Positions 8,372 through 63,914 of a stretch of DNA of 64,000 nucleotides are shown piece after piece. Position 1 is the stretch's first letter. Every line of letters starts with the position of its first letter. Both the position numbers and the translations under genes were made by a program. The stretch is taken from assembly GCA_032718475.1 (NCBI GenBank), contig JAUCBJ010003419.1:38200-102199 (forward strand). Reading direction: 5' to 3'. Source of the stretch: Nemertoderma westbladi. Its lineage: Eukaryota > Animalia > Xenacoelomorpha. A model generated the notes under the pieces. It was not told the DNA's origin. It saw only the letters and a list, made by a program, of their open reading frames with translations, and searched no databases.

Positions 8372-9526
8372 CTGAAAATGATTATTATAAAAAATATTAC
8401 CAAAATATAAAAACTGATAGCAGAGATAGTCTGACTCTTAATTAAATTATTTATATTAATTATAAATTGAATGCGACCCCTAGATAAAGCAACGGTATAC
8501 AGACGTTTCGGTCTAGGACGTTTCGGTCCAGGACGTTTCGGCCCGGACATTTCGGCCCGGACGATTCGGCCCGGACGATTCGGCCCGGACGTTTCGGCCC
8601 ATGACTGTAACCGAATGAAAAGGCCAACTTGTTTGATATGATAATAATTATTCATTAAAATTATAATTATTTCACAATAACATACAAACACTTAATGAAA
8701 TATCTTTCATGAAATGGCTATTTAATTTATTTAAATCAAAATAAAATACACATTATGCATGTGGTGCTCTGCCCCATTATGTTTTGCGGCCGAAAAAATG
8801 CAAGTCAGAACAAAACGTTTGGTACCGAGTACCACATTGCTAATAAACTACTAAAGCGAATCAATTTCACGAACCATTTAGGGCTTAAATCTCGTGTGAT
8901 CGATATATTTTGGAGATACTTCATTAGTTTAATTAAACATTACTCAATTAATAATTCTTGTAGCTGGACAGTGTATTGCAGCTATGTCTTAATGATCTGT
9001 TGAAACAATAACTCTCATCTCGATGATAGATGATTTATACCCATGGATAACGACGTATAATGCGTTTATTAATACATATTTTATTTCACTTCACATCCAC
9101 TCTGGTCCTTTTAATACGCATATAATTCCTCTAAATTTAAATTTAATACCCATATATTTCATCTAAATTTAAATTTAATACCCATATATTTCATCTAAAT
9201 TTAAATTTAATACGCATATATTTTATCTCATTCTATATGACATCCAGTCTATGTCATAATTATTAGCAATGCTCCTTTAATGGAATATTTCTTATCTATT
9301 ATATTTTTAAGTCTAACATTAAAATACAGTAATAATTTTAATTCGGTGTAATTTAATCTACTTTATTTATTGACTCACATTTTAAAATACTGTACGTATG
9401 TTTTTAACTATTACTTTACCTTTATTACTTTACCTATTACCTTTACTATTACTAACTTTTAACTATCTAACTGTATTAACTAAAGTTAATTTGTCAGCAT
9501 ATGTTATCTTTGTTCTAAGTTACAGT

Positions 9527-12231: not shown

Positions 12232-12349
12232 CCAAATGTTAATAAATTTGGGTAAAACGAAGTCTCCTAGATAAGGGAACGAAAATTTTTAGTTAACTAG
12301 TCACCCCCCCCCCCCCCCCCCCCCTTTAAACCAATAATAAAATACTTCC

Positions 12350-13441
12350 CTGTGTTCCAGAATCCAACTCCATACGATCGACGACAGCCGCGCGTTCAGC
12401 AGCCGGGGTGCACTCTATATAGCCGTCCTTAGAGTCCTTGACGTCTCTGTTGGACAGTTTGAGAGGCGCCCCAAACTCCGATCTAATACGAGACACCCTG
12501 AACCTCTGAAGCGCCCGAGTATCTCTCACGGACTCGTCAACTACCTCCAACTCGCTTCCCAGACTCTCCCAAGGTTTACTCTCAGGCGGTTCATACTTGT
12601 AGACCGTGGTATCAACCTCCTCACCCCCGCTCTCACCCTCCACATCGCTTTCCTCTGCAATATCTTCCTGCATTTGAATAACAGACGCTTTAAAATCCTC
12701 GCTAGTCACGAGAAGGAAATTCTCTCCGAACTTATAACTAGAATCGAAAATAATCATAATTTCCTCGCCGGGGTAGCTGTTTACCGTTCCTTTGAAGGGA
12801 CTCCAATCACTGACGGCAGCTCGCGACTTCATATCAGCGACTATAGTTGCTTTGGGGATGAGTTTAACAGGATTATCGGTAGTAACATCGGTATCAGTCA
12901 CGCAACTAAATATTTCCTGAGTTTTACTCGAGAGGAATAAAGGAACTGCGCCTTGCGGTGGAGTCGACTGCCCCTCTGCAACTCCTTCCTCGAGCTGCAT
13001 AAACTCTAGCGTCCGAATTTTCTTTGGTTTCTTTGCAGGTTCCGCGACGGATTCCGAAACGGCAGCGGTTGTAGCGGTGGAGGGTTTGCTTCCGGCGCTG
13101 GAGGGTTTACTCCGAGCGCTACCCGTTCGAGGTCGTCCCCCGGACGAGGCCGGAGTACCGGTACCAGTCCTCCTCGCCGAGGACTTCGCGGACAACGCTT
13201 TAGGGGATCGCTTAGCTGCCTGTCCGGGGGAAGGGGGTACAGGGCCGTCCGGACCGGGGGAAGTGGGTATGGGGGCCACCTGTCCGGGAGAAGGGGGTAC
13301 GGGGACGTCCTGTCCGGCGGAGGGTGGACCTGGCGCGGGGGACGATACCTTGTCTCCGACGTCGTCAGTCGCGGCGGAATTCGTTTCGGGTTGTGGTTCT
13401 TGTGATTCCGAACTTTCTTTTTTATCTTCGTTATCAGCCAT
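12350..13441 (-). CDS. DNAI3: DNAI3/WDR63 coding exon 1
   Basis: ATG at 13441 (MADNEDK); Pro/Ser-rich extension, then PLFLSSKTQEIF, DMKSRAAVSDWSP, PWESLGSELEV, R.RSEFGAP. It joins exon 2 in phase 0 (DSGTQ|AVP) for a product of ~1008 aa. Confidence 0.88.
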
Positions 13442-40415: not shown

Positions 40416-41054
40416 ATAGTATAATCAATATAAGTATAGTCAAAACAATACTCGTCTCCTTCATTAACATCGTTGCGCACATCCTGTTTTGTTTCAAAAT
40501 ATTTTTCCTTTTTTATAACTATGCAAAGTCCCGAATCTGTGCGAGTAACAGCTGATTTATGCCAGATGGATACTCGTATCCACCGCAAAACTCGTGGCGT
40601 TCGTTCGTTTTTGACTAAACTTCAGATTATTTCCAAACTTTTGAATGACTACATATGTACTGGTACCAAGTTTGGTTTAATTTGATCAAGAAATGGCCGA
40701 GTTATTAACGATCAAAAAATTATGACAACGACAGACAACTCGTTAATGGTACCAATATGCTAAGGGTTTTATTAAGCCTTTCTTACTTAGTAGCTCGCCC
40801 CAAAGTACAGAAGTATAGGCTAGCTTAAAATACTAATTGCAGAATAGGCTTACCGGTCTGCCTTTAGTTCTGTTAATTTAACCTACAACAGATAAGTACT
40901 GCTGTACTGAAGTAAGCCTACCGCAGTACTGCTGTACTGCAGTACTGGTACCGTAGTACAGTAGTACAGACACATCTACTACTGTACTAGTACTACCGGT
41001 ACACATACACAAGCTTTCGATATTTTGCATCCCAATTTTATTCACCATCTGGCC

Positions 41055-41717
41055 ATGGGTAAACCTGCGGACACAACAACGGCTGCACCAACAACGTCCA
41101 ACGCTCCCACCGACAAAATTCAAGAAGTATGGCAGGACAACATCGACGACGCGTTTAAAGAGATTCGCCAACTTGTACAGACTTACTGCTACGTCGCCAT
41201 GGACACAGAATTCCCCGGAGTGGTAGCTCGTCCGATCGGGGACTTTCGATCCAACGCTGAGTACCAGTACCAACTCCTTCGCTGCAACGTTGACCTCCTA
41301 AAGATAATCCAATTGGGTTTAACTTTCTCTGACGAGAACGGGAAATACCCCCCTGGTGTCTGCGCCTTCCAGTTTAACTTTAAGTTCAACTTAACGGAAG
41401 ATATGTACGCCGAGGACTCTATAGAACTACTGCAGCAGTCCGGGATTCAGTTCCAACGACACGAGGAACACGGAATAGACGTTTCGTATTTCGCCGAACT
41501 TCTGATGATGTCCGGAGTGATCCTAATGGATCGAGTTAAGTGGATCTCGTTCCACAGCGGTTACGATTTCGGCTACCTTCTTAAGATCCTTACGAACAAC
41601 CATCTTCCCTCCGAAGAAAGCGAATTCTTCGACTTGCTTCACACCTACTTTCCTTCCATATACGATGTTAAGTATCTTATGAAGAGTTGTAAAAGTCTTA
41701 AAGGCGGTTTACAGGAG
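41055..41717 (+). CDS. CNOT7: CCR4-NOT deadenylase CAF1 (CNOT7/8), coding exon 1
   Basis: VAMDTEFPGVVARPIG, YQYQLLRCNVDLLKIIQLGLTF, FHSGYDFGYL, LKGGLQE; donor GAG|gtgaga at 41718. Confidence 0.96.
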
Positions 41718-42476
41718 GTGAGAGCGATTTATTAATAAAAAAAACGCAGGTGGCAGGGTGGGGTGTGGGGCTCCTCCTCCTATTGAATCCGAAATTCATC
41801 CCTCTTAGGGGAAATCGACTCAATACACTTTCGTTTATTATTTTGGCTTGAATAACGTGCACCTGTAGCTGTAAAACCTGTTCCTTTCCATTAATTGATA
41901 TTTAACACTGTTTATTCGCCCCATATTCATCCCCCCCCCCCCCCTTTCAAAAGACCATGATGTATGTAAGAAATTTATGATACAGGTCGTACGGATTTAT
42001 AACAATTAACATAAGCGTGGGCTGGGCCCAATAAAATATATATTTTTATAATAACCTCTAGTTTGTAGCTTGGTAATCCAATACATACGATACTACATAA
42101 TATATCGTATGTAGAGCAGTAATATAAAAATAATATAGATCTGTTTATTTCCATAAAATAAGTTAAGAAGAGATATAAAAACTAAACAAACTAGCTTAAC
42201 CTTTGCTAGGGGGGAAATAATTTCCAATCAATTAATTAATTTTCATAAAAACGAAAGTATTTTGAAATAAATGATTCTAATCTAAATAACTTAAATTTCG
42301 AATTTAAATAGTTATCGGTATTTATTATAATAGAAACATAAAAATGTATTTATATTATATAAATAAAATACGTTCCTGTGTATTAACTAAACGAAACTAA
42401 ATTGTTAAAAGTATAATAAAAACAGGTCGAGAGAAAAAAATCAGCGTTAAACAAATAGTTTGATTTGGGTTGCTAG

Positions 42477-42749
42477 GTGGCGGACCAGATGGAGTTAGAG
42501 CGTATTGGGCCGCAGCACCAGGCCGGCAGCGATAGTCTGCTAACCGCCGAATCGTTCTTCCGCATGAGGGAGATGTACTTCGAGGATAACATCGACGACA
42601 CAAAGTACTGCGGCCATCTCTACGGGCTGGGGACCCCGTACGTACTCCAGAACGCTAATAATCTACCCACTGCTTCTACTCTAGAGTCGAATTCTACTGC
42701 TACTTCTACCGGGAACTCAAATAAGGACGATACATCATCTAATTCATAA
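42477..42749 (+). CDS. CNOT7: CNOT7/8 coding exon 2
   Basis: Acceptor ctag|GTG; VADQMELERIGPQHQAGSDSLLT...KYCGHLYGLG; stop ends at 42749. Confidence 0.96.
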   Translation: MADQMELERIGPQHQAGSDSLLTAESFFRMREMYFEDNIDDTKYCGHLYGLGTPYVLQNANNLPTASTLESNSTATSTGNSNKDDTSSNS

Positions 42750-43417
42750 TTAAATTCATTATTACGATAATTGAGTTATTATTGGAGTAAATATACCAGC
42801 CTAAGTGTAATATAATGTAGATTACTGTTCTGTACTTCAGTCATTATTATTGAGTATTCTATTCTACCTAAATAAATCTTTATAGATATTTCCTTCATAT
42901 ATTTTAATTATTTATTGATGGCGGACTAACAATTTATTGTGCGGGTCAAACTAAACGATCAGCAAAACAGCAAGTTAAATAATTTACTGGCGAGTCAAAA
43001 CCGCGAACCAACAGGCGACACACGAACCATTATAATTTTACAATGGCCGTTTTCCAAAAGTCCGTGGGGTGTATGAGTGTCAGTGTGTGTGTGTGTCGGG
43101 TACTAACAATTAGCACCCCTTCCTGATTACCAGCCATGGTGCACGAAGGCCACATACGTGACTGTAGTTTAAAATAAATTTTAGAACAGCACAAGCTTTG
43201 TTCGTTATTTATACCACGTCAATCTAAAGAAAGGAATTTCCGCATGTCGGAGTGAAATTTTTAAAATCCCACGTCCCATTAAAACATTTTTAAACTTTCT
43301 ATATCCAACGTTTAGTGAATGTTTTCCGACATTTATTGCTGCACCATTTACGGTTATTCTTTGGAACAATGGTGTAACAGGATTTGATACTTGTAATAGG
43401 TATTTTGATATACTAAC

Positions 43418-43640
43418 ACTGAACCATTATCATATAAAGTTCCACTGTACACAGACACGGCTGTTGGAGGCGCTCGCCCCGTTTCAGTAAACCCAGTAAC
43501 TCGTCTTTAGCTATCCGATCATACGGTACCTCCCCGAACGTGGTGATCTCCCACAAAGTTACACCGAACGACCACACATCAGACTGGTGAGTAAACTCTC
43601 GGTACTCTAGACTCTCCAGAGCAAACCATTGCTGGTGATT
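43418..43640 (-). CDS. EGFR/ErbB-like kinase C-lobe exon (equivalent to human EGFR exons 22+23)
   Basis: [40 protein letters not shown]...[20 protein letters not shown]; 223 nt; tag acceptor and T|gttagt donor. Confidence 0.92.
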
Positions 43641-44244
43641 CTATTGGCGAAATATTATATTAATTAATTTTAGAGAGCTTGAGCTAAAAAGTAATTGTGA
43701 AAAAAGTATGGTTTAAAAAAGATAATAATTTAACTAATGTAAAAATCTGACATCATTGAAAATTTAAGATACGACCATTCAAATATAATATGTCAATTTA
43801 TCCAACGATTTCAGACGTGGTTTATATCTTGAAAACAACAAATTTTAATTAAATTTTAACACTAAAATTAATTGTGTCAAGAAGACCAAGTTATATTTCT
43901 TTTAAGATGACATTCTACCAATTAATATTCTACCAATGATCTTCTATCAGTGGCAATTATAGACAGAGTAGCTCGAAAAACAAGATGGAATTTGGGAACA
44001 ATTATAATAATCGTACCGGAAATTATGCAGAGCTTCTTTATTATTAACTGTTTAAGCAAGGTAATATAAGGGTAGAGGTAATAAAATGTAACCTTGTATT
44101 AATTATTAGAGGTAAAAATATCCTTGTATTATATATTTTACTAAGAAATGCTACTTTCGTAATTGCCGTAAAATGTATAACTCAGATGATTGTACATATT
44201 TCATATAAAATCGATGAATGTGTGTTAGCTGTCTCTCCTCGCAC

Positions 44245-44400
44245 CTTATCTGCAATCGATATTAGTTCGTTGTTCAATGTTTCCAGTATCTTTGCCGCCC
44301 CGAAGTCTGTAATCTTTATCTGACCTGGTCTTTGAACTAATATGTTCTTGGCTGAGAGATATCGATGTACAATCCGTCGTTCTTCTAAATATCCCATTCC
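44245..44400 (-). CDS. EGFR/ErbB-like kinase exon (equivalent to human exon 21)
   Basis: [37 protein letters not shown]...DK; 156 nt, phase 0/0. Confidence 0.93.
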
Positions 44401-44459
44401 CTATGAACAAAATCATTACAAAAATATATGACCTTATTGTAACAGAGAACTTCGCAGGA

Positions 44460-47400
44460 CTCACCTACTTCAGCTACAGTATTTGTTTACACCAGTCCCA
44501 CTCACCTACCTCGGCTATTTGTTTACACCAGTCCCACTCACCTACCTCAGCTATTTGTTTACACCAGTCCCACTCACCTACCTCAGCTATTTGTTTACAC
44601 CAGTCCCACTCACCTACCTCGGCTATTTGTTTACACCAGTCCCACTCACCTACCTCAGCTATTTGTTTACACCAGTCCCACTCACCTACCTCAGCTATTT
44701 GTTTACACCAGTCCCACTCACCTACCTCAGCTATTTGTTTACACCAGTCCCACTCACCTACCTCAGCTATTTGTTTACACCAGTCCCACTCACCTACCTC
44801 AGCTATTTGTTTACACCAGTCCCACTCACCTACCTCAGCTATTTGTTTACACCAGTCCCACTCACCTACCTCAGCTATTTGTTTACACCAGTCCCACTCA
44901 CCTACCTCAGCTATTTGTTTACACCAGTCCCACTCACCTACCTCAGCTATTTGTTTACACCAGTCCCACTCACCTACCTCAGCTATTTGTTTACACCAGT
45001 CCCACTCACCTACCTCAGCTATTTGTTTACACCAGTCCCACTCACCTACCTCAGCTATTTGTTTACACCAGTCCCACTCACCTACCTCAGCTATTTGTTT
45101 ACACCAGTCCCACTCACCTACCTCAGCTATTTGTTTACACCAGTCCCACACACCTACCTCAGCTATTTGTTTACACCAGTCCCACTCACCTACCTCAGCT
45201 ATTTGTTTACACCAGTCCCACTCACCTACCTCAGCTATTTGTTTACACCAGTCCCACTCACCTACCTCAGCTATTTGTTTACACCAGTCCCACTCACCTA
45301 CCTCGGCTATTTGTTTACACCAGTCCCACTCACCTACCTCAGCTATTTGTTTACACCAGTCCCACTCACCTACCTCAGCTATTTGTTTACACCAGTCCCA
45401 CTCACCTACCTCAGCTATTTGTTTACACCAGTCCCACTCACCTACCTCAGCTATTTGTTTACACCAGTCCCACTCACCTACCTCAGCTATTTGTTTACAC
45501 CAGTCCCACTCACCTACCTCAGCTATTTGTTTACACCAGTCCCACACACCTACCTCAGCTATTTGTTTACACCAATCCCACTCACCTACCTCAGCTATTT
45601 GTTTACACCAGTCCCACTCACCTACCTCAGCTATTTGTTTACACCAGTCCCACACACCTACCTCAGCTATTTGTTTACACCAGTCCCACTCACCTACCTC
45701 GGCTATTTGTTTACACCAGTCCCACTCACCTACCTCGGCTATTTGTTTACACCAGTCCCACTCACCTACCTCAGCTATTTGTTTACACCAGTCCCACTCA
45801 CCTACCTCAGCTATTTGTTTACACCAGTCCCACACACCTACCTCAGCTATTTGTTTACACCAGTCCCACACACCTACCTCAGCTATTTGTTTACACCAGT
45901 CCCACTCACCTACCTCGGCTATTTGTTTACACCAGTCCCACTCACCTACCTCGGCTATTTGTTTACACCAGTCCCAATCACCTACCTCAGCTATTTGTTT
46001 ACACCAGTCCTACTCACCTACCTCGGCTATTTGTTTACACCAGTCCCACTCACCTACCTCGGCTATTTGTTTACACCAGTCCCACTCACCTACCTCAGCT
46101 ATTTGTTTACACCAGTCCCACTCACCTACCGCAGCTATTTGTTTACACCAGTCCCACTCACCTACCTCAGCTATTTGTTTACACCAGTCCCACTCACCTA
46201 CCTCGGCTATTTGTTTACACCAGTCCCACTCACCTACCTCGGCTATTTGTTTACACCAGTCCCACTCACCTACCTCGGCTATTTGTTTACACCAGTCCCA
46301 CTCACCTACCTCGGCTATTTGTTTACACCAGTTCCACTCACCTACCTCAGCTATTTGTTTACACCAGTCCCAATCACCTACCTCAGCTATTTGTTTACAC
46401 CAGTCCCACTCACCTACCTCAGCTATTTGTTTACACCAGTCCCACACACCTACCTCGGCTATTTGTTTACACCAGTCCCACTCACCTACCTCAGCTATTT
46501 GTTTACACCAGTCCCACTCACCTACATCAGCTATTTGTTTACACCAGTCCCACTCACCTACCTCAGCTATTTGTTTACACCAGTCCCACTCACCTACCTC
46601 AGCTATTTGTTTACACCAGTCCCACTCACCTACCTCAGCTATTCGTTTACACCAGTTCCACTCACCTACCTCAGCTATTTGTTTACACCAGTCCCACACA
46701 CCTACCTCAGCTATTTGTTTACACCAGTCCCACTCACCTACCTCAGCTATTTGTTTACACCAGTCCCACTCACCTACCTCAGCTATTTGTTTACACCAGT
46801 CCCACTCACCTACCTCAGCTATTTGTTTACACCAGTCCCACTCACCTACATCAGCTATTTGTTTACACCAGTCCCACTCACCTACCTCAGCTATTTGTTT
46901 ACACCAGTCCCACTCACCTACCTCAGCTATTTGTTTACACCAGTCCCACTCACCTACCTCGGCTATTTGTTTACACCAGTCCCACTCACCTACCTCGGCT
47001 ATTTGTTTACACCAGTCCCACTCACCTACCTCAGCTATTCGTTTACACCAGTCCCACTCACCTACCTCGGCTATTTGTTTACACAAGTCCCACTCACCTA
47101 CCTCAGCTATTTGTTTACACCAGTCCCACTCACCTACCTCGGCTATTTGTTTACACCAGTCCCACTCACCTACCTCAGCTATTTGTTTACACCAGTCCCA
47201 CTCACCTACCTCAGCTATTTGTTTACACCAGTCCCACTCACCTACCTCGGCTATTTGTTTACACCAGTCCCACTCACCTACCTCGGCTATTCGTTTACAC
47301 CAGTCCCACTCACCTACCTCAGCTATTTGTTTACACCAGTCCCACTCACCTACCTCAGCTATTTGTTTACACCAGTCCCACTCACCTACCTCAGCTATTT

Positions 47401-50400
47401 GTTTACACCAGTCCCACTCACCTACCTCGGCTATTTGTTTACACCAGTCCCACTCACCTACCTCAGCTATTTGTTTACACCAGTCCCACTCACCTACCTC
47501 AGCTATTTGTTTACACCAGTCCCACTCACCTACCTCGGCTATTTGTTTACACCAGTCCCACTCACCTACCTCGGCTATTCGTTTACACCAGTCCCACTCA
47601 CCTACCTCGGCTATTTGTTTACACCAGTCCCAGTCACCTACCTCAGCTATTTGTTTACACCAATCCCACTCACATACCTCAGCTATTTGTTTACACCAGT
47701 CCCACTCACCTACATCAGCTATTTGTTTACACCAGTCCCACTCACCTACCTCAGCTATTTGTTTACACCAGTCCCACTCACCTACCTCAGCTATTTGTTT
47801 ACACCAGTCCCACTCACCTACCTCAGCTATTTGTTTACACCAGTCCCACTCACCTACCTCGGCTATTTGTTTACACCAGTCCCACTCACCTACCTCGGCT
47901 ATTCGTTTACACCAGTCCCACTCACCTACCTCAGCTATTTGTTTACACCAGTCCCACTCACCTACCTCGGCTATTCGTTTACACCAGTCCCACTCACCTA
48001 CCTCAGCTATTCGTTTACACCAGTCCCACTCACCTACCTCGGCTATTTGTTTACACCAGTCCCACACACCTACCTCAGCTATTTGTTTACACCAGTCCCA
48101 CTCACCTACCTCAGCTATTTGTTTACACCAGTCCCACTCACCTACCTCGGCTATTTGTTTACACCAGTCCCACTCACCTACCTCGGCTATTCGTTTACAC
48201 CAGTCCCACTCACCTACCTCAGCTATTTGTTTACACCAGTCCCACTCACCTACCTCAGCTATTTGTTTACACCAGTCCCACTCACCTACCTCAGCTATTT
48301 GTTTACACCAGTCCCACTCACCTACCTCAGCTATTTGTTTACACCAGTCCCACTCACCTACCTCGGCTATTTGTTTACACCAGTCCCACTCACCTACCTC
48401 GGCTATTCGTTTACACCAGTCCCACTCACCTACCTCGGCTATTTGTTTACACCAGTCCCAGTCACCTACCTCAGCTATTTGTTTACACCAATCCCACTCA
48501 CATACCTCAGCTATTTGTTTACACCAGTCCCACTCACCTACATCAGCTATTTGTTTACACCAGTCCCACTCACCTACCTCAGCTATTTGTTTACACCAGT
48601 CCCAATCACCTACCTCAGCTATTTGTTTACACCAGTCCCACTCACCTACCTCGGCTATTTGTTTACACCAGTCCCACTCACCTACCGCAGCTATTTGTTT
48701 ACACCAGTCCCACTCACCTACCTCAGCTATTTGTTTACACCAGTCCCACTCACCTACCTCAGCTATTTGTTTACACCAGTCCCACTCACCTACCTCAGCT
48801 ATTTGTTTACACCAGTCCCACTCACCTACCGCAGCTATTTGTTTACACCAGTCCCACTCACCTACCTCAGCTATTTGTTTACACCAGTCCCACTCACCTA
48901 CCTCAGCTATTTGTTTACACCAGTCCCACTCACCTACCTCAGCTATTTGTTTACACCAGTCCCACTCACCTACCTCAGCTATTTGTTTACACCAGTCCCA
49001 CTCACCTACCTCAGCTATTTGTTTACACCAGTCCCACTCACCTACCTCAGCTATTTGTTTACACCAGTCCCACTCACCTACCTCGGCTATTTGTTTACAC
49101 CAGTCCCACTCACCTACCGCAGCTATTTGTTTACACCAGTCCCACTCACCTACCTCAGCTATTTGTTTACACCAGTCCCACTCACCTACCTCAGCTATTT
49201 GTTTACACCAGTCCCACACACCTACCTCAGCTATTTGTTTACACCAGTCCCACACACCTACCTCAGCTATTTGTTTACACCAGTCCCACTCACCTACCTC
49301 GGCTATTTGTTTACACCAGTCCCACTCACCTACCTCGGCTATTTGTTTACACCAGTCCCAATCACCTACCTCAGCTATTTGTTTACACCAGTCCTACTCA
49401 CCTACCTCGGCTATTTGTTTACACCAGTCCCACTCACCTACCTCGGCTATTTGTTTACACCAGTCCCACTCACCTACCTCAGCTATTTGTTTACACCAGT
49501 CCCACTCACCTACCGCAGCTATTTGTTTACACCAGTCCCACTCACCTACCTCAGCTATTTGTTTACACCAGTCCCACTCACCTACCTCGGCTATTTGTTT
49601 ACACCAGTCCCACTCACCTACCTCGGCTATTTGTTTACACCAGTCCCACTCACCTACCTCGGCTATTTGTTTACACCAGTCCCACTCACCTACCTCGGCT
49701 ATTTGTTTACACCAGTTCCACTCACCTACCTCAGCTATTTGTTTACACCAGTCCCAATCACCTACCTCAGCTATTTGTTTACACCAGTCCCACTCACCTA
49801 CCTCAGCTATTTGTTTACACCAGTCCCACACACCTACCTCGGCTATTTGTTTACACCAGTCCCACTCACCTACCTCAGCTATTTGTTTACACCAGTCCCA
49901 CTCACCTACATCAGCTATTTGTTTACACCAGTCCCACTCACCTACCTCAGCTATTTGTTTACACCAGTCCCACTCACCTACCTCAGCTATTTGTTTACAC
50001 CAGTCCCACTCACCTACCTCAGCTATTCGTTTACACCAGTTCCACTCACCTACCTCAGCTATTTGTTTACACCAGTCCCACACACCTACCTCAGCTATTT
50101 GTTTACACCAGTCCCACTCACCTACCTCAGCTATTTGTTTACACCAGTCCCACTCACCTACCTCAGCTATTTGTTTACACCAGTCCCACTCACCTACCTC
50201 AGCTATTTGTTTACACCAGTCCCACTCACCTACATCAGCTATTTGTTTACACCAGTCCCACTCACCTACCTCAGCTATTTGTTTACACCAGTCCCACTCA
50301 CCTACCTCAGCTATTTGTTTACACCAGTCCCACTCACCTACCTCGGCTATTTGTTTACACCAGTCCCACTCACCTACCTCGGCTATTTGTTTACACCAGT

Positions 50401-53400
50401 CCCACTCACCTACCTCAGCTATTCGTTTACACCAGTCCCACTCACCTACCTCGGCTATTTGTTTACACAAGTCCCACTCACCTACCTCAGCTATTTGTTT
50501 ACACCAGTCCCACTCACCTACCTCGGCTATTTGTTTACACCAGTCCCACTCACCTACCTCAGCTATTTGTTTACACCAGTCCCACTCACCTACCTCAGCT
50601 ATTTGTTTACACCAGTCCCACTCACCTACCTCGGCTATTTGTTTACACCAGTCCCACTCACCTACCTCGGCTATTCGTTTACACCAGTCCCACTCACCTA
50701 CCTCAGCTATTTGTTTACACCAGTCCCACTCACCTACCTCAGCTATTTGTTTACACCAGTCCCACTCACCTACCTCAGCTATTTGTTTACACCAGTCCCA
50801 CTCACCTACCTCGGCTATTTGTTTACACCAGTCCCACTCACCTACCTCAGCTATTTGTTTACACCAGTCCCACTCACCTACCTCAGCTATTTGTTTACAC
50901 CAGTCCCACTCACCTACCTCGGCTATTTGTTTACACCAGTCCCACTCACCTACCTCGGCTATTCGTTTACACCAGTCCCACTCACCTACCTCGGCTATTT
51001 GTTTACACCAGTCCCAGTCACCTACCTCAGCTATTTGTTTACACCAATCCCACTCACATACCTCAGCTATTTGTTTACACCAGTCCCACTCACCTACATC
51101 AGCTATTTGTTTACACCAGTCCCACTCACCTACCTCAGCTATTTGTTTACACCAGTCCCACTCACCTACCTCAGCTATTTGTTTACACCAGTCCCACTCA
51201 CCTACCTCAGCTATTTGTTTACACCAGTCCCACTCACCTACCTCGGCTATTTGTTTACACCAGTCCCACTCACCTACCTCGGCTATTCGTTTACACCAGT
51301 CCCACTCACCTACCTCAGCTATTTGTTTACACCAGTCCCACTCACCTACCTCGGCTATTCGTTTACACCAGTCCCACTCACCTACCTCAGCTATTCGTTT
51401 ACACCAGTCCCACTCACCTACCTCGGCTATTTGTTTACACCAGTCCCACACACCTACCTCAGCTATTTGTTTACACCAGTCCCACTCACCTACCTCAGCT
51501 ATTTGTTTACACCAGTCCCACTCACCTACCTCGGCTATTTGTTTACACCAGTCCCACTCACCTACCTCGGCTATTCGTTTACACCAGTCCCACTCACCTA
51601 CCTCAGCTATTTGTTTACACCAGTCCCACTCACCTACCTCAGCTATTTGTTTACACCAGTCCCACTCACCTACCTCGGCTATTTGTTTACACCAGTCCCA
51701 CTCACCTACCTCGGCTATTCGTTTACACCAGTCCCACTCACCTACCTCGGCTATTTGTTTACACCAGTCCCACTCACCTACCTCAGCTATTTGTTTACAC
51801 CAGTCCCACTCACCTACCTCAGCTATTTGTTTACACCAGTCCCACTCACCTACCTCAGCCTATTTGTTTACACCAGTCCCACTCACCTACCTCAGCTATT
51901 TGTTTACACCAGTCCCACTCACCTACCTCAGCTATTTGTTTACACCAGTCCCACTCACCTACCTCAGCTATTTGTTTACACCAGTCCCACTCACCTACCT
52001 CGGCTATTTGTTTACACCAGTCCCACTCACCTACCGCAGCTATTTGTTTACACCAGTCCCACTCACCTACCTCAGCTATTTGTTTACACCAGTCCCACTC
52101 ACCTACCTCAGCTATTTGTTTACACCAGTCCCACTCACCTACCTCGGCTATTTGTTTACACCAGTCCCACTCACCTACCTCGGCTATTCGTTTACACCAG
52201 TCCCACTCACCTACCTCAGCTATTTGTTTACACCAGTCCCACTCACCTACCTCAGCTATTTGTTTACACCAGTCCCACTCACCTACATCAGCTATTTGTT
52301 TACACCAGTCCCACTCACCTACCTCAGCTATTTGTTTACACCAGTCCCACTCACCTACCTCAGCTATTTGTTTACACCAGTCCCACTCACCTACCTCAGC
52401 TATTCGTTTACACCAGTTCCACTCACCTACCTCAGCTATTTGTTTACACCAGTCCCACACACCTACCTCAGCTATTTGTTTACACCAGTCCCACTCACCT
52501 ACCTCAGCTATTTGTTTACACCAGTCCCACTCACCTACCTCAGCTATTTGTTTACACCAGTCCCACTCACCTACCTCAGCTATTTGTTTACACCAGTCCC
52601 ACTCACCTACATCAGCTATTTGTTTACACCAGTCCCACTCACCTACCTCAGCTATTTGTTTACACCAGTCCCACTCACCTACCTCAGCTATTTGTTTACA
52701 CCAGTCCCACTCACCTACCTCGGCTATTTGTTTACACCAGTCCCACTCACCTACCTCGGCTATTTGTTTACACCAGTCCCACTCACCTACCTCAGCTATT
52801 CGTTTACACCAGTCCCACTCACCTACCTCGGCTATTTGTTTACACAAGTCCCACTCACCTACCTCAGCTATTTGTTTACACCAGTCCCACTCACCTACCT
52901 CGGCTATTTGTTTACACCAGTCCCACTCACCTACCTCAGCTATTTGTTTACACCAGTCCCACTCACCTACCTCAGCTATTTGTTTACACCAGTCCCACTC
53001 ACCTACCTCGGCTATTTGTTTACACCAGTCCCACTCACCTACCTCGGCTATTCGTTTACACCAGTCCCACTCACCTACCTCAGCTATTTGTTTACACCAG
53101 TCCCACTCACCTACCTCAGCTATTTGTTTACACCAGTCCCACTCACCTACCTCAGCTATTTGTTTACACCAGTCCCACTCACCTACCTCGGCTATTTGTT
53201 TACACCAGTCCCACTCACCTACCTCAGCTATTTGTTTACACCAGTCCCACTCACCTACCTCAGCTATTTGTTTACACCAGTCCCACTCACCTACCTCGGC
53301 TATTTGTTTACACCAGTCCCACTCACCTACCTCGGCTATTCGTTTACACCAGTCCCACTCACCTACCTCGGCTATTTGTTTACACCAGTCCCAGTCACCT

Positions 53401-56400
53401 ACCTCAGCTATTTGTTTACACCAATCCCACTCACATACCTCAGCTATTTGTTTACACCAGTCCCACTCACCTACATCAGCTATTTGTTTACACCAGTCCC
53501 ACTCACCTACCTCAGCTATTTGTTTACACCAGTCCCACTCACCTACCTCAGCTATTTGTTTACACCAGTCCCACTCACCTACCTCAGCTATTTGTTTACA
53601 CCAGTCCCACTCACCTACCTCGGCTATTTGTTTACACCAGTCCCACTCACCTACCTCGGCTATTCGTTTACACCAGTCCCACTCACCTACCTCAGCTATT
53701 TGTTTACACCAGTCCCACTCACCTACCTCGGCTATTCGTTTACACCAGTCCCACTCACCTACCTCAGCTATTCGTTTACACCAGTCCCACTCACCTACCT
53801 CGGCTATTTGTTTACACCAGTCCCACACACCTACCTCAGCTATTTGTTTACACCAGTCCCACTCACCTACCTCAGCTATTTGTTTACACCAGTCCCACTC
53901 ACCTACCTCGGCTATTTGTTTACACCAGTCCCACTCACCTACCTCGGCTATTCGTTTACACCAGTCCCACTCACCTACCTCAGCTATTTGTTTACACCAG
54001 TCCCACTCACCTACCTCAGCTATTTGTTTACACCAGTCCCACTCACCTACCTCGGCTATTTGTTTACACCAGTCCCACTCACCTACCTCGGCTATTCGTT
54101 TACACCAGTCCCACTCACCTACCTCGGCTATTTGTTTACACCAGTCCCACACACCTACCTCAGCTATTTGTTTACACCAGTCCCACTCACCTACCTCAGC
54201 TATTTGTTTACACCAGTCCCACTCACCTACCTCACCTATTTGTTTACACCAGTCCCACTCACCTACCTCAGCTATTTGTTTACACCAGTCCCACTCACCT
54301 ACCTCAGCTATTTGTTTACACCAGTCCCACTCACCTACCTCAGCTATTTGTTTACACCAGTCCCACTCACCTACCTCGGCTATTTGTTTACACCAGTCCC
54401 ACTCACCTACCGCAGCTATTTGTTTACACCAGTCCCACTCACCTACCTCAGCTATTTGTTTACACCAGTCCCACTCACCTACCTCAGCTATTTGTTTACA
54501 CCAGTCCCACTCACCTACCTCAGCTATTTGTTTACACCAGTCCCACTCATCTACCTCGGCTATTTGTTTACACCAGTTCCACTCACCTACCTCAGCTATT
54601 TGTTTACACCAGTCCCAATCACCTACCTCAGCTATTTGTTTACACCAGTCCCACTCACCTACCTCGGCTATTTGTTTACACCAGTCCCACTCACCTACCG
54701 CAGCTATTTGTTTACACCAGTCCCACTCACCTACCTCAGCTATTTGTTTACACCAGTCCCACTCACCTACCTCAGCTATTTGTTTACACCAGTCCCACTC
54801 ACCTACCTCAGCTATTTGTTTACACCAGTCCCACTCACCTACCTCGGCTATTCGTTTACACCAGTCCCACTCACCTACCTCAGCTATTTGTTTACACCAG
54901 TCCCACTCACCTACCTCAGCTATTTGTTTACACCAGTCCCACTCACCTACCTCGGCTATTCGTTTACACCAGTCCCACTCACCTACCTCAGCTATTTGTT
55001 TACACCAGTCCCACTCACCTACCTCAGCTATTTGTTTACACCAGTCCCACTCACCTACCTCAGCTATTTGTTTACACCAGTCCCACTCACCTACCTCAGC
55101 TATTTGTTTACACCAGTCCCACTCACCTACCTCGGCTATTTGTTTACACCAGTCCCACTCACCTACCTCAGCTATTTGTTTACACCAGTCCCAATCACCT
55201 ACCTCAGCTATTTGTTTACACCAGTCCCACTCACCTACCTCGGCTATTTGTTTACACCAGTCCCACTCACCTACCGCAGCTATTTGTTTACACCAGTCCC
55301 ACTCACCTACCTCAGCTATTTGTTTACACCAGTCCCACTCACCTACCTCAGCTATTTGTTTACACCAGTCCCACTCACCTACCTCAGCTATTTGTTTACA
55401 CCAGTCCCACTCACCTACCTCGGCTATTCGTTTACACCAGTCCCACTCACCTACCTCAGCTATTTGTTTACACCAGTCCCACTCACCTACCTCAGCTATT
55501 TGTTTACACCAGTCCCACTCACCTACCTCGGCTATTCGTTTACACCAGTCCCACTCACCTACCTCAGCTATTTGTTTACACCAGTCCCACTCACCTACCT
55601 CAGCTATTTGTTTACACCAGTCCCACTCACCTACCTCAGCTATTTGTTTACACCAGTCCCACTCACCTACCTCAGCTATTTGTTTACACCAGTCCCACTC
55701 ACCTACCTCGGCTATTTGTTTACACCAGTCCCACTCACCTACCGCAGCTATTTGTTTACACCAGTCCCACTCACCTACCTCAGCTATTTGTTTACACCAG
55801 TCCCACTCACCTACCTCAGCTATTTGTTTACACCAGTCCCACTCACCTACCTCGGCTATTTGTTTACACCAGTCCCACTCACCTACCTCAGCTATTTGTT
55901 TACACCAGTCCCACTCACCTACCTCAGCTATTTGTTTACACCAGTCCCACTCACCTACCTCAGCTATTTGTTTACACCAGTCCCACTCACCTACCTCGGC
56001 TATTTGTTTACACCAGTCCCACTCACCTACCGCAGCTATTTGTTTACACCAGTCCCACTCACCTACCTCGGCTATTTGTTTACACCAGTCCCACTCACCT
56101 ACCGCAGCTATTTGTTTACACCAGTCCCACTCACCTACCTCAGCTATTTGTTTACACCAGTCCCACTCACCTACCTCAGCTATTTGTTTACACCAGTCCC
56201 ACTCACCTACCTCAGCTATTTGTTTACACCAGTCCCACTCACCTACCTCAGCTATTTGTTTACACCAGTCCCACTCACCTACCTCAGCTATTTGTTTACA
56301 CCAGTCCCACTCACCTACCTCAGCTATTTGTTTACACCAGTCCCACTCACCTACCTCGGCTATTTGTTTACACCAGTCCCACTCACCTACCGCAGCTATT

Positions 56401-59400
56401 TGTTTACACCAGTCCCACTCACCTACCTCAGCTATTTGTTTACACCAGTCCCACTCACCTACCTCAGCTATTTGTTTACACCAGTCCCACTCACCTACCT
56501 CAGCTATTTGTTTACACCAGTCCCAATCACCTACCTCAGCTATTTGTTTACACCAGTCCCACTCACCTACCTCGGCTATTTGTTTACACCAGTCCCACTC
56601 ACCTACCGCAGCTATTTGTTTACACCAGTCCCACTCACCTACCTCAGCTATTTGTTTACACCAGTCCCAATCACCTACCTCAGCTATTTGTTTACACCAG
56701 TCCCACTCACCTACCTCGGCTATTTGTTTACACCAGTCCCACTCACCTACCGCAGCTATTTGTTTACACCAGTCCCACTCACCTACCGCAGCTATTTGTT
56801 TACACCAGTCCCACTCACCTACCTCAGCTATTTGTTTACACCAGTCCCACTCACCTACCTCAGCTATTTGTTTACACCAGTCCCACTCACCTACCTCGGC
56901 TATTCGTTTACACCAGTCCCACTCACCTACCTCGGCTATTTGTTTACACCAGTCCCACTCACCTACCTCAGCTATTTGTTTACACCAGTCCCACTCACCT
57001 ACCTCGGCTATTTGTTTACACCAGTCCCACTCACCTACCTCAGCTATTTGTTTACACCAGTCCCACTCACCTACCTCAGCTATTTGTTTACACCAGTCCC
57101 ACTCACCTACCTCAGCTATTTGTTTACACCAGTCCCACTCACCTACCTCGGCTATTCGTTTACACCAGTCCCACTCACCTACCTCAGCTATTTGTTTACA
57201 CCAGTCCCACTCACCTACCTCAGCTATTTGTTTACACCAGTCCCACTCACCTACCTCGGCTATTCGTTTACACCAGTCCCACTCACCTACCTCGGCTATT
57301 TGTTTACACCAGTCCCACTCACCTACCTCAGCTATTTGTTTACACCAGTCCCACTCACCTACCTCGGCTATTTGTTTACACCAGTCCCACTCACCTACCT
57401 CAGCTATTTGTTTACACCAGTCCCACTCACCTACCTCAGCTATTTGTTTACACCAGTCCCACTCACCTACCTCGGCTATTTGTTTACACCAGTCCCACTC
57501 ACCTACCTCGGCTATTCGTTTACACCAGTCCCACTCACCTACCTCGGCTATTTGTTTACACCAGTCCCACACACCTACATCAGCTATTTGTTTACACCAG
57601 TCCCACTCACCTACCTCACCTATTTGTTTACACCAGTCCCACTCACCTACCTCAGCTATTTGTTTACACCAGTCCCACTCACCTACCTCAGCTATTTGTT
57701 TACACCAGTCCCATTCACCTACCTCAGATATTTGTTTACACCAGTCCCACTCACCTACCTCAGCTATTTGTTTACACCAGTCCCACTCACCTACCTCAGC
57801 TATTTGTTTACACCAGTCCCACTCACCTACCTCGGCTATTTGTTTACACCAGTTCCACTCACCTACCGCAGCTATTTGTTTACACCAGTCCCACTCACCT
57901 ACCTCAGCTATTTGTTTACACCAGTCCCACTCACCTACCTCAGCTATTTGTTTACACCAGTCCCACTCACCTACCTCAGCTATTTGTTTACACCAGTCCC
58001 ACTCACCTACCTCAGCTATTTGTTTACACCAGTCCCACTCACCTACCTCAGCTATTTGTTTACACCAGTCCCACTCACCTACCTCGGCTATTTGTTTACA
58101 CCAGTCCCACTCACCTACCGCAGCTATTTGTTTACACCAGTCCCACTCACCTACCTCAGCTATTTGTTTACACCAGTCCCACTCACCTACCTCAGCTATT
58201 TGTTTACACCAGTCCCACTCACCTACCTCAGCTATTTGTTTACACCAGTCCCACTCACCTACCTCGGCTATTTGTTTACACCAGTTCCACTCACCTACCT
58301 CAGCTATTTGTTTACACCAGTCCCAATCACCTACCTCAGCTATTTGTTTACACCAGTCCCACTCACCTACCTCGGCTATTTGTTTACACCAGTCCCACTC
58401 ACCTACCTCGGCTATTTGTTTACACCAGTTCCACTCACCTACCTCAGCTATTTGTTTACACCAGTCCCAATCACCTACCTCAGCTATTTGTTTACACCAG
58501 TCCCACTCACCTACCTCGGCTATTTGTTTACACCAGTCCCACTCACCTACCTCAGCTATTTGTTTACACCAGTCCCACTCACCTACCTCAGCTATTTGTT
58601 TACACCAGTCCCACTCACCTACCTCAGCTATTTGTTTACACCAGTCCCACTCACCTACCTCAGCTATTTGTTTACACCAGTCCCACTCACCTACCTCGGC
58701 TATTTGTTTACACCAGTCCCACTCACCTACCTCAGCTATTTGTTTACACCAGTCCCACTCACCTACCTCAGCTATTTGTTTACACCAGTCCCACTCACCT
58801 ACCTCAGCTATTTGTTTACACCAGTCCCACTCACCTACCTCAGCTATTTGTTTACACCAGTCCCACTCACCTACCTCAGCTATTTGTTTACACCAGTCCC
58901 AGTCACCTACCTCAGCTATTTGTTTACACCAGTCCCACTCACCTACCTCGGCTATTTGTTTACACCAGTCCCACTCACCTACCTCAGCTATTTGTTTACA
59001 CCAGTCCCAGTCACCTACCTCAGCTATTTGTTTACACCAGTCCCACTCACCTACCTCAGCTATTTGTTTACACCAGTCCCACTCACCTACCTCAGCTATT
59101 TGTTTACACCAGTCCCACACACCTACCTCGGCTATTTGTTTACACCAGTCCCACTCACCTACCTCGGCTATTTGTTTACACCAGTCCCACTCACCTACCT
59201 CAGCTATTTGTTTACACCAGTCCCACTCACCTACCTCGGCTATTTGTTTACACCAGTCCCACTCACCTACCTCAGCTATTTGTTTACACCAGTCCCAGTC
59301 ACCTACCTCAGCTATTTGTTTACACCAGTCCCACTCACCTACCTCAGCTATTTGTTTACACCAGTCCCACTCACCTACCTCGGCTATTTGTTTACACCAG

Positions 59401-59507
59401 TCCCACTCACCTACCTCAGCTATTTGTTTACACCAGTCCCAGTCACCTACCTCAGCTATTTGTTTACACCAGTCCCACTCACCTACCTCGGCTATTTGTT
59501 TACACCA
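44460..59507 (-). repeat. ~15-kb tandem array of a 36-bp unit (~418 copies) derived from the exon/intron junction
   Basis: Sense-strand unit TGGTGTAAACAAATAGCYGAG|GTAGGTGAGTGGGAC; the first 21 nt are the end of exon 59487-59675. Confidence 0.98.
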
Positions 59508-59675
59508 TGTTGCCAATATCGAGGTTCCAATTTTCTCTTTATTTTCCCTCAAGTAATCCAATAGGTTGCCTAGCGACATAAGTTGTGTAACTAGCGACAG
59601 TCCCTGCGACGTCACTGATACTCCGAGTAGACGAGTTAAACTTGGGTGAAGCAACGTCGATATTACGTAACACGC
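59487..59675 (-). CDS. EGFR/ErbB-like kinase exon (equivalent to human exon 20)
   Basis: ACYVISTLLHPSLTRLLGVSVTSQGLSLVTQLMSLGNLLDYLRENKEKIGTSILATWCKQIAE; ttcag acceptor and GAG|gtaggt donor. Confidence 0.92.
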
Positions 59676-59833: not shown

Positions 59834-61068
59834 GGGTCATTGTCACTAAAAGTGCCCCAAACAGACTTCGTTCAGTACCTTAATGTTGGAAGTTTCACAA
59901 AAACCAAATTGCAGAAAATACATTATGGGTGCTAAAAATTAATTTATATGGTAAAAATGGCTATTTTAAAATGTCCGCAAGTAAAGTACAGGTTAGATTT
60001 GTAATTGTTGAGGGAACAGTTTTCTAAATAGTTCTGCTAATGATGCATTATGGTCCACATCGGTTTAAAAGGTAAAGCACCTCAGCAATAACCGAGTGTC
60101 CGCAGATTTTGGCATATTTCGTGACCATTTCGTATCAGAAAACGAACTGCCAATGTGGATGAGATAGCGATTTAAAGTTGTCCTGAATTTAATACATAAC
60201 GCGAGCCTACTGTAAAGTTGTCCTGAATTTAATACATACCGCGAACCTACTGTAAAGTTGTCCTGAATTTAATACATAACGTGAGCCTACTGTAAAGTTG
60301 TCCTGAATTTAATACATAACGCGAGCCTACTGTAAAGTTGTCCTGAATTTAATACATAACGCGAGCCTACTGTAAAGTTGTCCTGAATTTAATACATACC
60401 GCGAGCCTACTGTAATGTAAAGTTTTTAGGACCGAATTGGTAATTACAACAATAATTTTATATCAATATGAATACAGCTAGGTTTGGCGGACACGATGAT
60501 TTGTCCTTCATGTAACGGTCGTATTATTATTTGTAATATCTTAGGAGTACATTTTGAGGTAAATAGTAAATGTTTATCGTACTCTTCAGCTCATTGCGCA
60601 TGTAATGATGTATAAAAATTTCCTAATTCGTTATCTGTGAAATATTTACAATTACAAGCATTGAACGAGATGCGTCCATTCATATAAACACGTCCACATT
60701 ACATGAACAACCGTTACATGACAGGAACGTCCTTCATGTAACGCTCCGGACACACTTAGCATTGTACCGAAGGGTGGTCCAATCAATCCATGTCTGGTTC
60801 AGGTATATTGCAGTATTGGAGCCTTTGGTCCCACAGTTAACTTCACTTCTGGAGTAGATTGTATGTTTATACGGACATTTTTGTTACATGAAGGACACTC
60901 TTTCAACCCTAACTTTATATTTTTATTTTTCTAAAGAGGTTGGCAACTACCACCATTGAGTTCATCTCAGAAAGATCTTTCAAATGATTTAAGTTTTCCA
61001 TATATCTGAGAACTTAATTTTTGGTCTAAAATCAACCTCGGTTTGGGCAGCTTTAGTAAGATTGACCC
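59834..61068. mobile_element. Non-autonomous DNA transposon with 4-bp AAAT TSD (possibly Sola-like)
   Basis: Imperfect TIRs: GGGTCATTGTCACTAAAAGTGCCCCAAAC on the left versus GGGTCAATCTTACTAAAGCTGCCCAAAC (reverse complement of the right end). AAAT on both sides; internal GTCCTTCATGTAAC inverted motifs. Confidence 0.6.
60173..60415. repeat. 40-bp minisatellite, 6 copies
   Basis: TAAAGTTGTCCTGAATTTAATACATAACGCGAGCCTACTG x6. Confidence 0.95.
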
Positions 61069-61238: not shown

Positions 61239-61478
61239 ATCAAGAAATCTTCTTCCGCCACTAGTCTCGGTGTTACTTCCGTTTTTGATTTCTTTAAGAG
61301 CGACGGGTATTTTTATTTTCGAATGAGATTTCTGAGGACCCCCTTCCGGCGTCCACAATCCTCTGTAAACGAGTCCAAACGATCCTGAGCCGATCTCATT
61401 TAGTTTAAGTAAACTCGCTTCGTTTATAAGATGTAGCTGAACCACTTCTCGGGAGACTTTAGGCCAGTTGTTCAACGG
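61239..61478 (-). CDS. EGFR/ErbB-like kinase N-lobe exon (equivalent to human exons 18+19)
   Basis: PLNNW...IGSGSFGLVYRGLWTPEG...IKIPVALKEI...RRFLD; 240 nt, phase 0/0. Confidence 0.92.
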
Positions 61479-62209: not shown

Positions 62210-62366
62210 CTTTAAGGTGACGCCATCGATATCGGAAAACTGTCGGCTGATTATCCGGTATTCTCGTTTTATCGCCCTCTTGCGGCACAAGTAGGTAACG
62301 GAAATGGCGAATATTGTAAACGCGGCGAGTGCTAGACCTATACCGACAGATGCCGAAGTAGAAATG
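62210..62366 (-). CDS. EGFR/ErbB-like transmembrane and juxtamembrane exon
   Basis: ISTSASVGIGLALAAFTIFAISVTYL followed by the basic stop-transfer CRKRAIKR; AAG|gtcagt donor; phases fit the neighbouring exons. Confidence 0.85.
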
Positions 62367-62659: not shown

Positions 62660-62786
62660 CTTAGTATATTGACACATTTCTTGTTCTCTGGTCTTGTAAA
62701 TTGAGGGCAACTTTTAAGACATTGTCCGAAGTAGCTGTAATCAAGGCAACTTACACAGTTCTGATTAGACGGTCCTGTACATCCGT
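62660..62786 (-). CDS. EGFR/ErbB-like furin-type Cys-rich exon
   Basis: GCTGPSNQNCVSCLDYSYFGQCLKSCPQF...KKC; phase 1/2. Confidence 0.85.
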
Positions 62787-63193
62787 CTATAAAATACAGT
62801 TTTAAAGGAATTTAATAATCTTGTAATTGAAAGTACATTATGTGTATCTCAATCACCCTACGGCAATATAGCAGATAATTCCCGCTAAAAAGGCGCTGCC
62901 ACTTACGTCTCGCCTCGCATCCTTATTAACCAAACTTTAACAAACTGTAACTAAGTGCGCTAACTGCACTGTAACCGCATTACACTGCAAACATTTTCGC
63001 ATAATTTATATATCGACAAATGTATTTTCTATAAACTAGATACCCGTGCGCGCATGAGAGAGAGATTTCAGCTCGTATCGCGTTTGTTACATTTTTGCAG
63101 CAAAACATTCTTAAGTTTGTTGTCGAGTTATCCATCCATGTCCATTTCACAATATTACACTAATTTAATTATTCATAAACGTATTTTTGTAAC

Positions 63194-63332
63194 CTTTGCA
63201 TTCCTCAGCGCACTGACTGCAGTTTCGGGGTGCATCTGGGTTTGGGAAGGTATTTTTCTGACAGCGCTCATGGCAGACTCCCTCTAGAAGGTAAGGTACG
63301 TCGCTAGGGCATTCGCTGAGACATACACTCCC
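63194..63332 (-). CDS. EGFR/ErbB-like Cys-rich exon
   Basis: GSVCLSECPSDVPYLLEGVCHERCQKNTFPNPDAPRNCSQCAEECK; phase 0/1. Confidence 0.85.
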
Positions 63333-63782
63333 CTAAAATAATAAGAAAGTAAATGAACAGCAATAAATTGTTAACAAACTATATCTTTACAGCTCTATAT
63401 ACTACGATTGACGCGGTAACCTAACCTCAGTCAACACACCCTTTTATTATTATTAAAGTTAAATAATATCCAATACCAGGTAATCTGACGTAACATTTGT
63501 GATAACTTACGCCTCCGTGGAGGAAATCTTTCTATTTTTGTCCAAACTATCTACTTTTCATCTTTTTAAACAAACCACTTGGATCAGCACAGTGTAATGT
63601 GCTATACTTTACTTACCAGTACAAGTATGTAAATAGTTATTTCATTAATAATTAAACCGCTTGCGGTTGGGGCAATGGGAGCCCTGAACTATTAAAGATG
63701 ACTACATGAAAAATACCAGTAATGAATAGTTTCTAGATATATGATAAGGATTGGATTTAGGCTCCTAGAATCTACCATATAC

Positions 63783-63914
63783 CTGATCAGGTTGCCCACT
63801 AACGAGGTATCGTTTCACGTTACGGCACTCCCCGTCACACCCAGTCGCAAGGCCATTACTGCATCTTCCAACACATTCAGGGTGACATCTGATACATGTT
63901 ACATTATCATCTCC
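63783..63914 (-). CDS. EGFR/ErbB-like Cys-rich exon (gene continues beyond the window)
   Basis: GDDNVTCIRCHPECVGRCSNGLATGCDGECRNVKRY...; ccag acceptor and CAG|gtatat donor. Confidence 0.85.

Follow-up and report, generated by a model that had tools for sequence, protein, structure and literature searches.

The window analysed here, a 64,000-nucleotide stretch of Nemertoderma westbladi DNA (contig JAUCBJ010003419.1, positions 38,200 to 102,199 of the forward strand), carries on its minus strand an EGFR-like receptor gene in which one intron consists almost entirely of tandem copies of its own 5' splice site. We consider it likely that this array is a 418-copy donor-spanning minisatellite which grew neutrally in a once-short intron of an EGFR paralogue predicted to be kinase-dead, and that splicing from the first donor removes the whole array. 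Observed directly are the array with its two donors per unit and its higher-order blocks, the loss of catalytic residues and a single spliced contig; from these we infer the rest of this reading. The intron is composed of the following features:

44401..59486, minus strand: array-bearing intron of 15,086 nucleotides (nt), phase 0, GT..AG, at the human EGFR exon 20/21 position
59477..59486, minus strand: authentic donor GAG/GTAGGT with the nested TAG/GTGAGT, from U1 duplex energies
45755..54143, minus strand: higher-order blocks, from unit parsing and shuffles
51839..51875, minus strand: unit 213 with a 1-nt insertion, which ends the open frame (first stop 51857)
44401..44494, minus strand: degenerate last copy and residual intron with the acceptor, likely what is left of the ancestral short intron

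The array and its repeat unit

Unit parsing yielded 418 unit starts for a minus-strand 36-bp minisatellite at 44,459-59,507, the first of them (59507) at the exon's own last 21 nt and the final one (44494) in a degenerate copy. Tandem Repeats Finder (TRF) called a period of 36 over 44480-59507 with 417.4 copies and 97% matches, and the approximately 418 copies reported in a preliminary description of this DNA are therefore borne out. The unit agrees with that description as well, being composed of 21 exonic nt (WCKQIAE) and 15 nt beginning GTAGGTGAGT. Its first copy straddles the exon/intron boundary and the others follow head-to-tail, which places the array among the donor-spanning minisatellites. 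The last donor lies 68 nt from the acceptor at 44401, where about 60-70 nt of unique intron had been estimated, and the array fills the rest, 99.5% of the intron.

By alignment to human EGFR (entry 9p9u), the two flanking exons correspond to chain positions 68-127 and to those from 129 on. The intron lies between the residues paired with 128 and 129, that is, at the K823/G824 boundary. Human EGFR exon 20 comprises residues 762-823 according to the accessible part of PMC9479138. The earlier claim that the expansion took place in a pre-existing intron, one that human EGFR also has (exons 20/21), is hence upheld.

Each unit offers two GT donors, GAG/GTAGGT (+1) and, 4 nt further, TAG/GTGAGT (+5), with U1 duplex energies of -11.2 and -11.7 kcal/mol, respectively, that are identical across consensus units (calculated with the U1 motif). 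The donor 9-mer GAGGTAGGT is identical in 383 of 417 units, and the GT of the second donor is intact in 416 of 417. It had been noticed before that no unit has lost the GT at +1/+2, and as a count this stands (417 of 417 full units, and also the last copy); however, with 16 distinct unit substitutions the probability that none falls on +1/+2 is 0.37. The intact GTs are expected by chance, their conservation is not significant, and selection on the GT is rejected. Unit variants comprise 12 nonsynonymous changes, 3 synonymous changes and 1 stop, against 82, 17 and 9 among the 108 possible substitutions, and the array also carries one 1-nt and one 5-nt insertion; the protein-level selection expected of a coding minisatellite is not seen (16 events, low power). 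Variants that weaken the donor occur at -2, -1, +4 and +5. Altogether, the variant spectrum looks neutral, with no sign of selection on either the peptide or the GT at this low power.

The reading frame is open from the exon to the 1-nt insertion of unit 213 (start 51875), in accordance with the roughly 212 units and the end near 51855 given in the preliminary description, and TAG is carried by units 281 and 375. In consequence, 212 of the 418 +1 donors (1-212) keep the frame of exon 21, while the other 206 (213-418) are out of frame or beyond the stop; joined to the 44400 acceptor, the +5 donor would shift the frame in each of the 418 copies. The open frame of the array needs no selection, because 36 is a multiple of three and stops arise from only 9 of the 108 possible substitutions. 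An AG 16 nt into exon 21 (44384-44400, minus strand), read by eye, would restore the frame in combination with the +5 donor and drop four residues.

Two further roles of the repeated sites were considered and rejected. Masking of the donors by RNA structure finds no support in three folds (z = 0.70, 0.23 and -0.47). An array of recursive splice sites (a ratchet) could draw on TAG/GTGAGT, which is present, but the pyrimidine tracts are wanting: 6-8 of the 20 nt upstream of it are pyrimidines, compared with 11-17 at seven of eight candidate acceptors of the gene, the eighth, an uncertain site, having 7.

Several long runs of units recur without change, the longest being 70 units (units 219-288 = 313-382), followed by runs of 53 and 50, while the longest run in 30 shuffles was 12. 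These identical runs are nested in larger blocks that differ at 11 of 66 and 15 of 94 units. At the acceptor end the last copy is damaged by a 5-nt insertion with an in-frame TAG and by G>A at -1, and the unique intron that follows the last GTAGGTGAGT continues with CCTGC, where the units have GGGAC. The final 5 nt of the unit are therefore probably junction filler and not old intron, suggesting a 31-nt duplication plus 5 nt of filler in an ancestral intron of about 68 nt. The filler and the start of the old intron form an exact 5-nt inverted match, which may mark template switching and is too short for reliance.

The array in public sequencing runs

Of six public runs of one organism label, none of them listed as RNA, four (X1-X4) were compared over window positions 40500-44535; the other two, X5 and X6, had a share of 0.00. 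Unit depth in these runs is summed contig depth and not copy number; it is to be read no more closely than 'hundreds of copies', and copies at other loci may contribute to it. In X1 and X3, where the flanking alleles are unlike that of the window at several sites, contigs extend from exon 21 via the degenerate copy into the following unit, and the summed depth of the unit bin is about 23,000 against 7-28 for single copy. Relative to single copy, unit depth is about 2,400-3,500x in X1 and 830-1,290x in X3, compared with 890-1,460x for unitigs simulated from the window's array. The occurrence of the array in the window, X1 and X3 with differing flanking alleles suggests that long arrays are common.

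These depths bear on the possibility, named in the preliminary description itself, that the array has been inflated during assembly and is in reality far shorter. The 70 identical units (2.5 kb) found twice might be a product of mis-tiling, and unit depth is low in X2 (see below). Nevertheless, X1 and X3 equal or exceed the 418-copy simulation, and the larger blocks around the identical runs differ from each other in the units counted above, so we give inflation hardly any credence.

Donor choice in a spliced contig

The run X4 appears to be RNA-like: the GT..AG intron of the neighbouring CNOT7 gene is skipped at depth 9054, a loose end with poly(A) lies at 42899, and intron 43641-44244 of the EGFR-like gene is skipped. 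Exon 21 occupies positions 1497-1651 of one X4 contig of 1,829 nt (depth 24.9), in which 44399 is joined to 22 letters matching 44509-44530. The compared stretch extends 5 letters further, and the match ends where exon and unit diverge (CAACA versus GGGAC), whereas a typical unit donor would match all 27 letters, and the bin depth of 4.53 equals 24.9x22/121. Five of the 417 array donors could stop at 22 letters too, all within units 170-388, and these units are excluded as the X4 donor because the contig has only 1,496 letters upstream. On this one contig of one RNA-like run, viewed from the exon-21 side, donor 1 is likely the main donor in the assembled X4 form.

The preliminary description had considered that the spliceosome might pick the most upstream donor by an unexplained rule. 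The X4 contig fits such a choice, but the rule has a precedent in human F7 (PMC1557585) and in amphioxus genes (PMC3087553), as reported in the accessible parts of both papers. The concern that the gene might be untranscribed is countered by the spliced contig with exon 21, given that X4 is RNA as it seems to be.

A leakier version of the same process would have donor 1 dominant, with low-level use of donors 2-3 inserting a block of the VGEWDWCKQIAE type once or twice, in frame, as functionless noise. Such a ladder is conceivable in that donors 1-212 are in frame with equal U1 pairing, exons of 225-261 nt are plausible, and two additional donors are in use in both human 6-16 and CBS (as cited in the accessible part of PMC1557585). 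On the other hand, the X4 contig is unbroken over the direct junction, and F7, LMNB2, PDGF and the amphioxus genes use the authentic donor only (PMC1557585 and PMC3087553, in the parts available), which makes it unlikely in our view, though worth keeping in mind.

Several points weigh against removal of a long array from the first donor. X4 is labelled 'DNA?' and is RNA by our reading of its skipped introns; it is a single RNA-like run, represented by contigs only, with a depth of about 25 and the junction viewed from the exon-21 side alone. Contigs drop minor forms, so a low-level ladder could escape. The X4 sample has no listed DNA run, so the presence of the array in the X4 animal is unproven, and in X4 the unit is without contig depth past the 22 exon-end letters. 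This lack is uninformative on the array, because the bins of the CNOT7 intron are also zero at exon depths in the thousands. The F7 rule comes from mammalian cells with up to 12 copies, according to the accessible part of PMC1557585. Finally, unit depth in X2 is only 35-46x, though X2 and X3 are assigned to one sample.

At 44415-44535, X2 lies about 30 times below X3 when both are scaled to single copy, whereas at the dispersed repeat (40500-40770) X2 has the greater depth; the depth ratios among X1, X3 and X2 differ about 80-fold (summed contig depth, not copy number). The low value could reflect library bias or a short allele, that is, length polymorphism; an enzyme-based library could explain it because the array is without a GATC site. 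Sites for GANTC, TTAA and CATG are likewise absent from the array. The low X2 depth and the missing DNA run for the X4 sample would also suit a polymorphic, mildly harmful expansion, in which carriers of long arrays mis-splice or under-express the gene and the X4 animal is short-array or array-free. For an intron grown from 68 nt to 15 kb, moreover, recognition would need to pass from intron definition to exon definition. Against this, the array is present in the window, X1 and X3 on differing flanking alleles, and an array-free joint is absent among the listed loose ends of the DNA runs, the only place where one could appear. We regard a harmful expansion as improbable.

The host gene is a predicted pseudokinase

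Membership of the host in the EGFR/ErbB family is borne out by the best PDB hits (EGFR/ErbB4) and by the combination of Cys-rich exons, a transmembrane segment and EGFR-type kinase exons; its 5' part lies beyond the window. The exons are:

~62660-63900, minus strand: Cys-rich exons, upstream of the transmembrane exon
62210..62366, minus strand: transmembrane and juxtamembrane exon (a hydrophobic stretch, then basic residues), the transmembrane segment judged by eye
61239..61478, minus strand: equivalent of EGFR exons 18+19, with Gly loop GSGSFG and the VALK lysine kept, from sequence comparison
59487..59675, minus strand: equivalent of EGFR exon 20, 189 nt, ACYVIS...WCKQIAE, its first residue replacing the alphaC Glu, from alignment
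44245..44400, minus strand: equivalent of EGFR exon 21, 156 nt, HRYLSAKN for HRDLAARN and DFG kept, from alignment and the X4 contig
43418..43640, minus strand: equivalent of EGFR exons 22+23, NHQQW for MPIKW, ending MVQC, joined to exon 21 in X4

The preliminary description treated the host as a kinase, which does not hold for its catalytic residues. HRDLAARN is found in 5 of 5 fetched EGFRs, against HRYLSAKN in the host, and the alphaC Glu is absent (FLD/ACY versus FLE-EAK). The Lys and DFG of an active tyrosine kinase are kept, while HRD has become HRY, the alphaC Glu is gone and the C-lobe appears incomplete, with no kinase end found in the window. The kinase domain is accordingly predicted to be catalytically dead. 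The X4 contig matches the window at every letter of 44245-44399; the HRY motif is therefore transcribed.

An equivalent of exon 24 was not found within the window (best E 0.86; control 3.9e-18), and from the MVQC point onward five EGFR relatives have a further 282-354 residues. If the 43418-43640 exon is left unspliced, TAG follows MVQC directly and AATAAA occurs 76 nt on, at 43337-43332. The X4 depth arithmetic fits a contig that reaches about 75 nt into that intron, though other solutions are possible. The host protein likely ends after MVQC (helix alphaH), without a tail. A candidate last exon at 42800 (AG/GC TGG, WYIYSNNN...) was discarded, having no profile support and no joint among those listed.

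The five exons that were read contain no stops or frameshifts, and both listed exonic variants are silent. Among the variants listed, density is 2 in 379 exonic against 16 in 892 intronic positions (p=0.12). The host may therefore not be a pseudogene but a pseudokinase that is maintained. No close relative or orthologue was recovered: 0 of 83 candidates scored in one comparison, another gave 14 hits among 60 candidates with a best identity of 61% (sea cucumber EGFR), and a further one yielded 28 hits with identities of 36-52%, no near match among them. The host is a candidate decoy or ErbB3-like partner.

As its second option, the preliminary description had proposed a ladder of isoforms that acts as a rheostat of length or expression. 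We found no positive evidence for this, and the unit variants look neutral. A selected rheostat, with many donors used to give a length ladder or tuned receptor output, could draw on the 212 in-frame donors, on a 12-codon unit without stop and on host exons that look maintained (clean frames, silent variants and the above p=0.12). It conflicts with the lack of any selection sign at coding and GT positions, with the direct junction of the assembled form, with a kinase domain without the catalytic Asp and with the absence of special RNA structure in the three folds, and it seems very improbable. Insertions at helix alphaE would not tune kinase activity in a domain predicted to be without catalysis. 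Also improbable is a variant in which a length-variable block of about 800 U1-binding sites tunes the amount of a kinase-dead, tail-less EGFR decoy receptor, or adds a 12-residue insertion ladder to a fraction of it. If true, this block would be a natural splicing rheostat more than 10 times larger than the compared cases.

Comparison with known donor-spanning repeats

One of the closest likenesses is to the 37-bp variable number tandem repeat (VNTR) of human F7 intron 7. There, as in the present intron, the first unit spans the boundary, the downstream pseudo-donors are identical and the most upstream donor is used, with a near-equal unit length. According to the accessible part of PMC1557585 (Borensztajn et al. 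2006), 50 constructs show that the most upstream donor is chosen; among 5-9 identical donors the first alone is used, even when the copies are raised to 12 or the sites downstream are made stronger, and the molecular trigger of this choice is still described as open. The F7 repeat differs in having 5-9 copies and 4 exonic nt, against 418 copies and 21 exonic nt here. Unlike F7, moreover, the present unit consists of whole codons, has two donors, fills 99.5% of its intron and resides in an invertebrate.

As cited in the same part of PMC1557585, LMNB2 and PDGF use the first donor only, while two sites are used among 25 pseudo-sites in 6-16 and among 15-20 in CBS. The 31-bp VNTR of CBS intron 13, c.1444_1467+7(16_21), has 24 exonic and 7 intronic nt in 16-21 copies (PMC2630376, accessible part), and it resembles the present array in that its unit is mostly exon end and that units differ by single bases. 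It differs in its 16-21 copies and in the two extra donors used in CBS and 6-16, none of which was seen here in the X4 contig.

In amphioxus, the 'mirages' of Adh3 and of the globins BflGb6 and BflGb9 are likewise tandem copies of exon/intron boundaries in an invertebrate, and the accessible part of PMC3087553 reports that splicing is undisturbed and that edge copies are unhomogenised. The degenerate last copy of the present array similarly seems to have escaped homogenisation. BflGb6, in contrast, has 3-6 units, and block-level amplification over 15 kb is not described in that part of the paper.

Inactive-kinase members of the EGFR family are known from human ErbB3 and from planarian and limpet paralogues (PMC4914847, accessible part); like the host, they are EGFR paralogues without catalytic residues that are still transcribed and spliced. 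The host differs in that it seems to stop after helix alphaH, without a tail. Table 1 of PMC4914847 covers four xenacoelomorphs and assigns an inactive EGFR to none of them. A literature search, with most subscription papers outside its reach, brought up no donor-spanning array of hundreds of copies. The kind of repeat is already known from human and lancelet genes; what is new is its size, 418 copies against 5-26 in the human cases.

Possible origin and significance

The array may have arisen through duplication of a 31-nt exon-end/donor segment, together with 5 nt of filler, inside an intron of about 68 nt. Unequal exchange would then have amplified it, sometimes by whole blocks of 66-94 units, while the copy at the edge decayed. 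The donor beside the 189-nt exon would win, being transcribed first and pairing across the exon with the upstream acceptor; this could operate by oriented scanning or by exon definition, like in human F7, and later donors would imply exons of 225 to 15,207 nt. Splicing errors would be cheap, because half of the +1 and all of the +5 donors lead to a frameshift or stop and the kinase domain appears to be dead already. The array probably does no harm and represents a known repeat type at an unusually large size.

If a single donor is indeed chosen over 15 kb out of 418 identical ones (about 835 when the nested site is counted), selection of the first donor extends far beyond the 5-26 human copies and outside mammals. 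The array pits exon definition, which favours the first donor, against acceptor proximity, which favours the last, in an intron likely grown from about 68 nt, and the unit variants serve as barcodes for donor identity. A minor novelty of its own is the host gene, an EGFR pseudokinase of a xenacoelomorph that is expressed and seems to be truncated.

Neighbouring repeats and genes

A second array, at 14387-40415 (26 kb), lies about 4 kb from the 36-bp array and has a unit of 24 bp in 1,085 copies with 83% matches. On either side of it a gene likely has its 5' end, one DNAI3-like and the other CNOT7-like. Together the 36-bp and 24-bp arrays account for 64% of the window, and the second giant array at such a distance suggests that giant arrays are a local trait. 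One minus-strand reading of the 24-bp array gives VTLLPEPQ-type repeats; the array is likely non-coding, because all six frames carry 99-727 stops, with a longest open stretch of 927 codons. A high-copy dispersed repeat (40500-40770), with a depth of 8,000-36,000 in the DNA runs, adjoins it, and a 40-bp tandem repeat of six copies occurs at 60173-60415, in the intron upstream of exon 20.

The CNOT7/CAF1 gene (PF04857; 41055-42899, plus strand) is convergent with the EGFR-like gene, and its poly(A) in X4 at 42899 is about 430 nt from the likely poly(A) signal of the latter. A DNAI3/WDR63 gene on the minus strand (6437-8437 and 12326-13441) has an uninterrupted frame of 666 codons and an upstream frame of 371 codons that is likely its 5' part. 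Together with an uninterrupted thymidylate-kinase-like frame (PF02223) of 401 codons at 264-1469 on the plus strand, it represents an intron-poor neighbour. The best DNAI3 hits are hemichordates (55%). In a quick tree of 27 of the 120 listed hits, chosen by taxon, DNAI3 groups with an acoel, which weakly supports a xenacoelomorph as the source animal, with a Shimodaira-Hasegawa-like approximate likelihood ratio test (SH-aLRT) value of 86.

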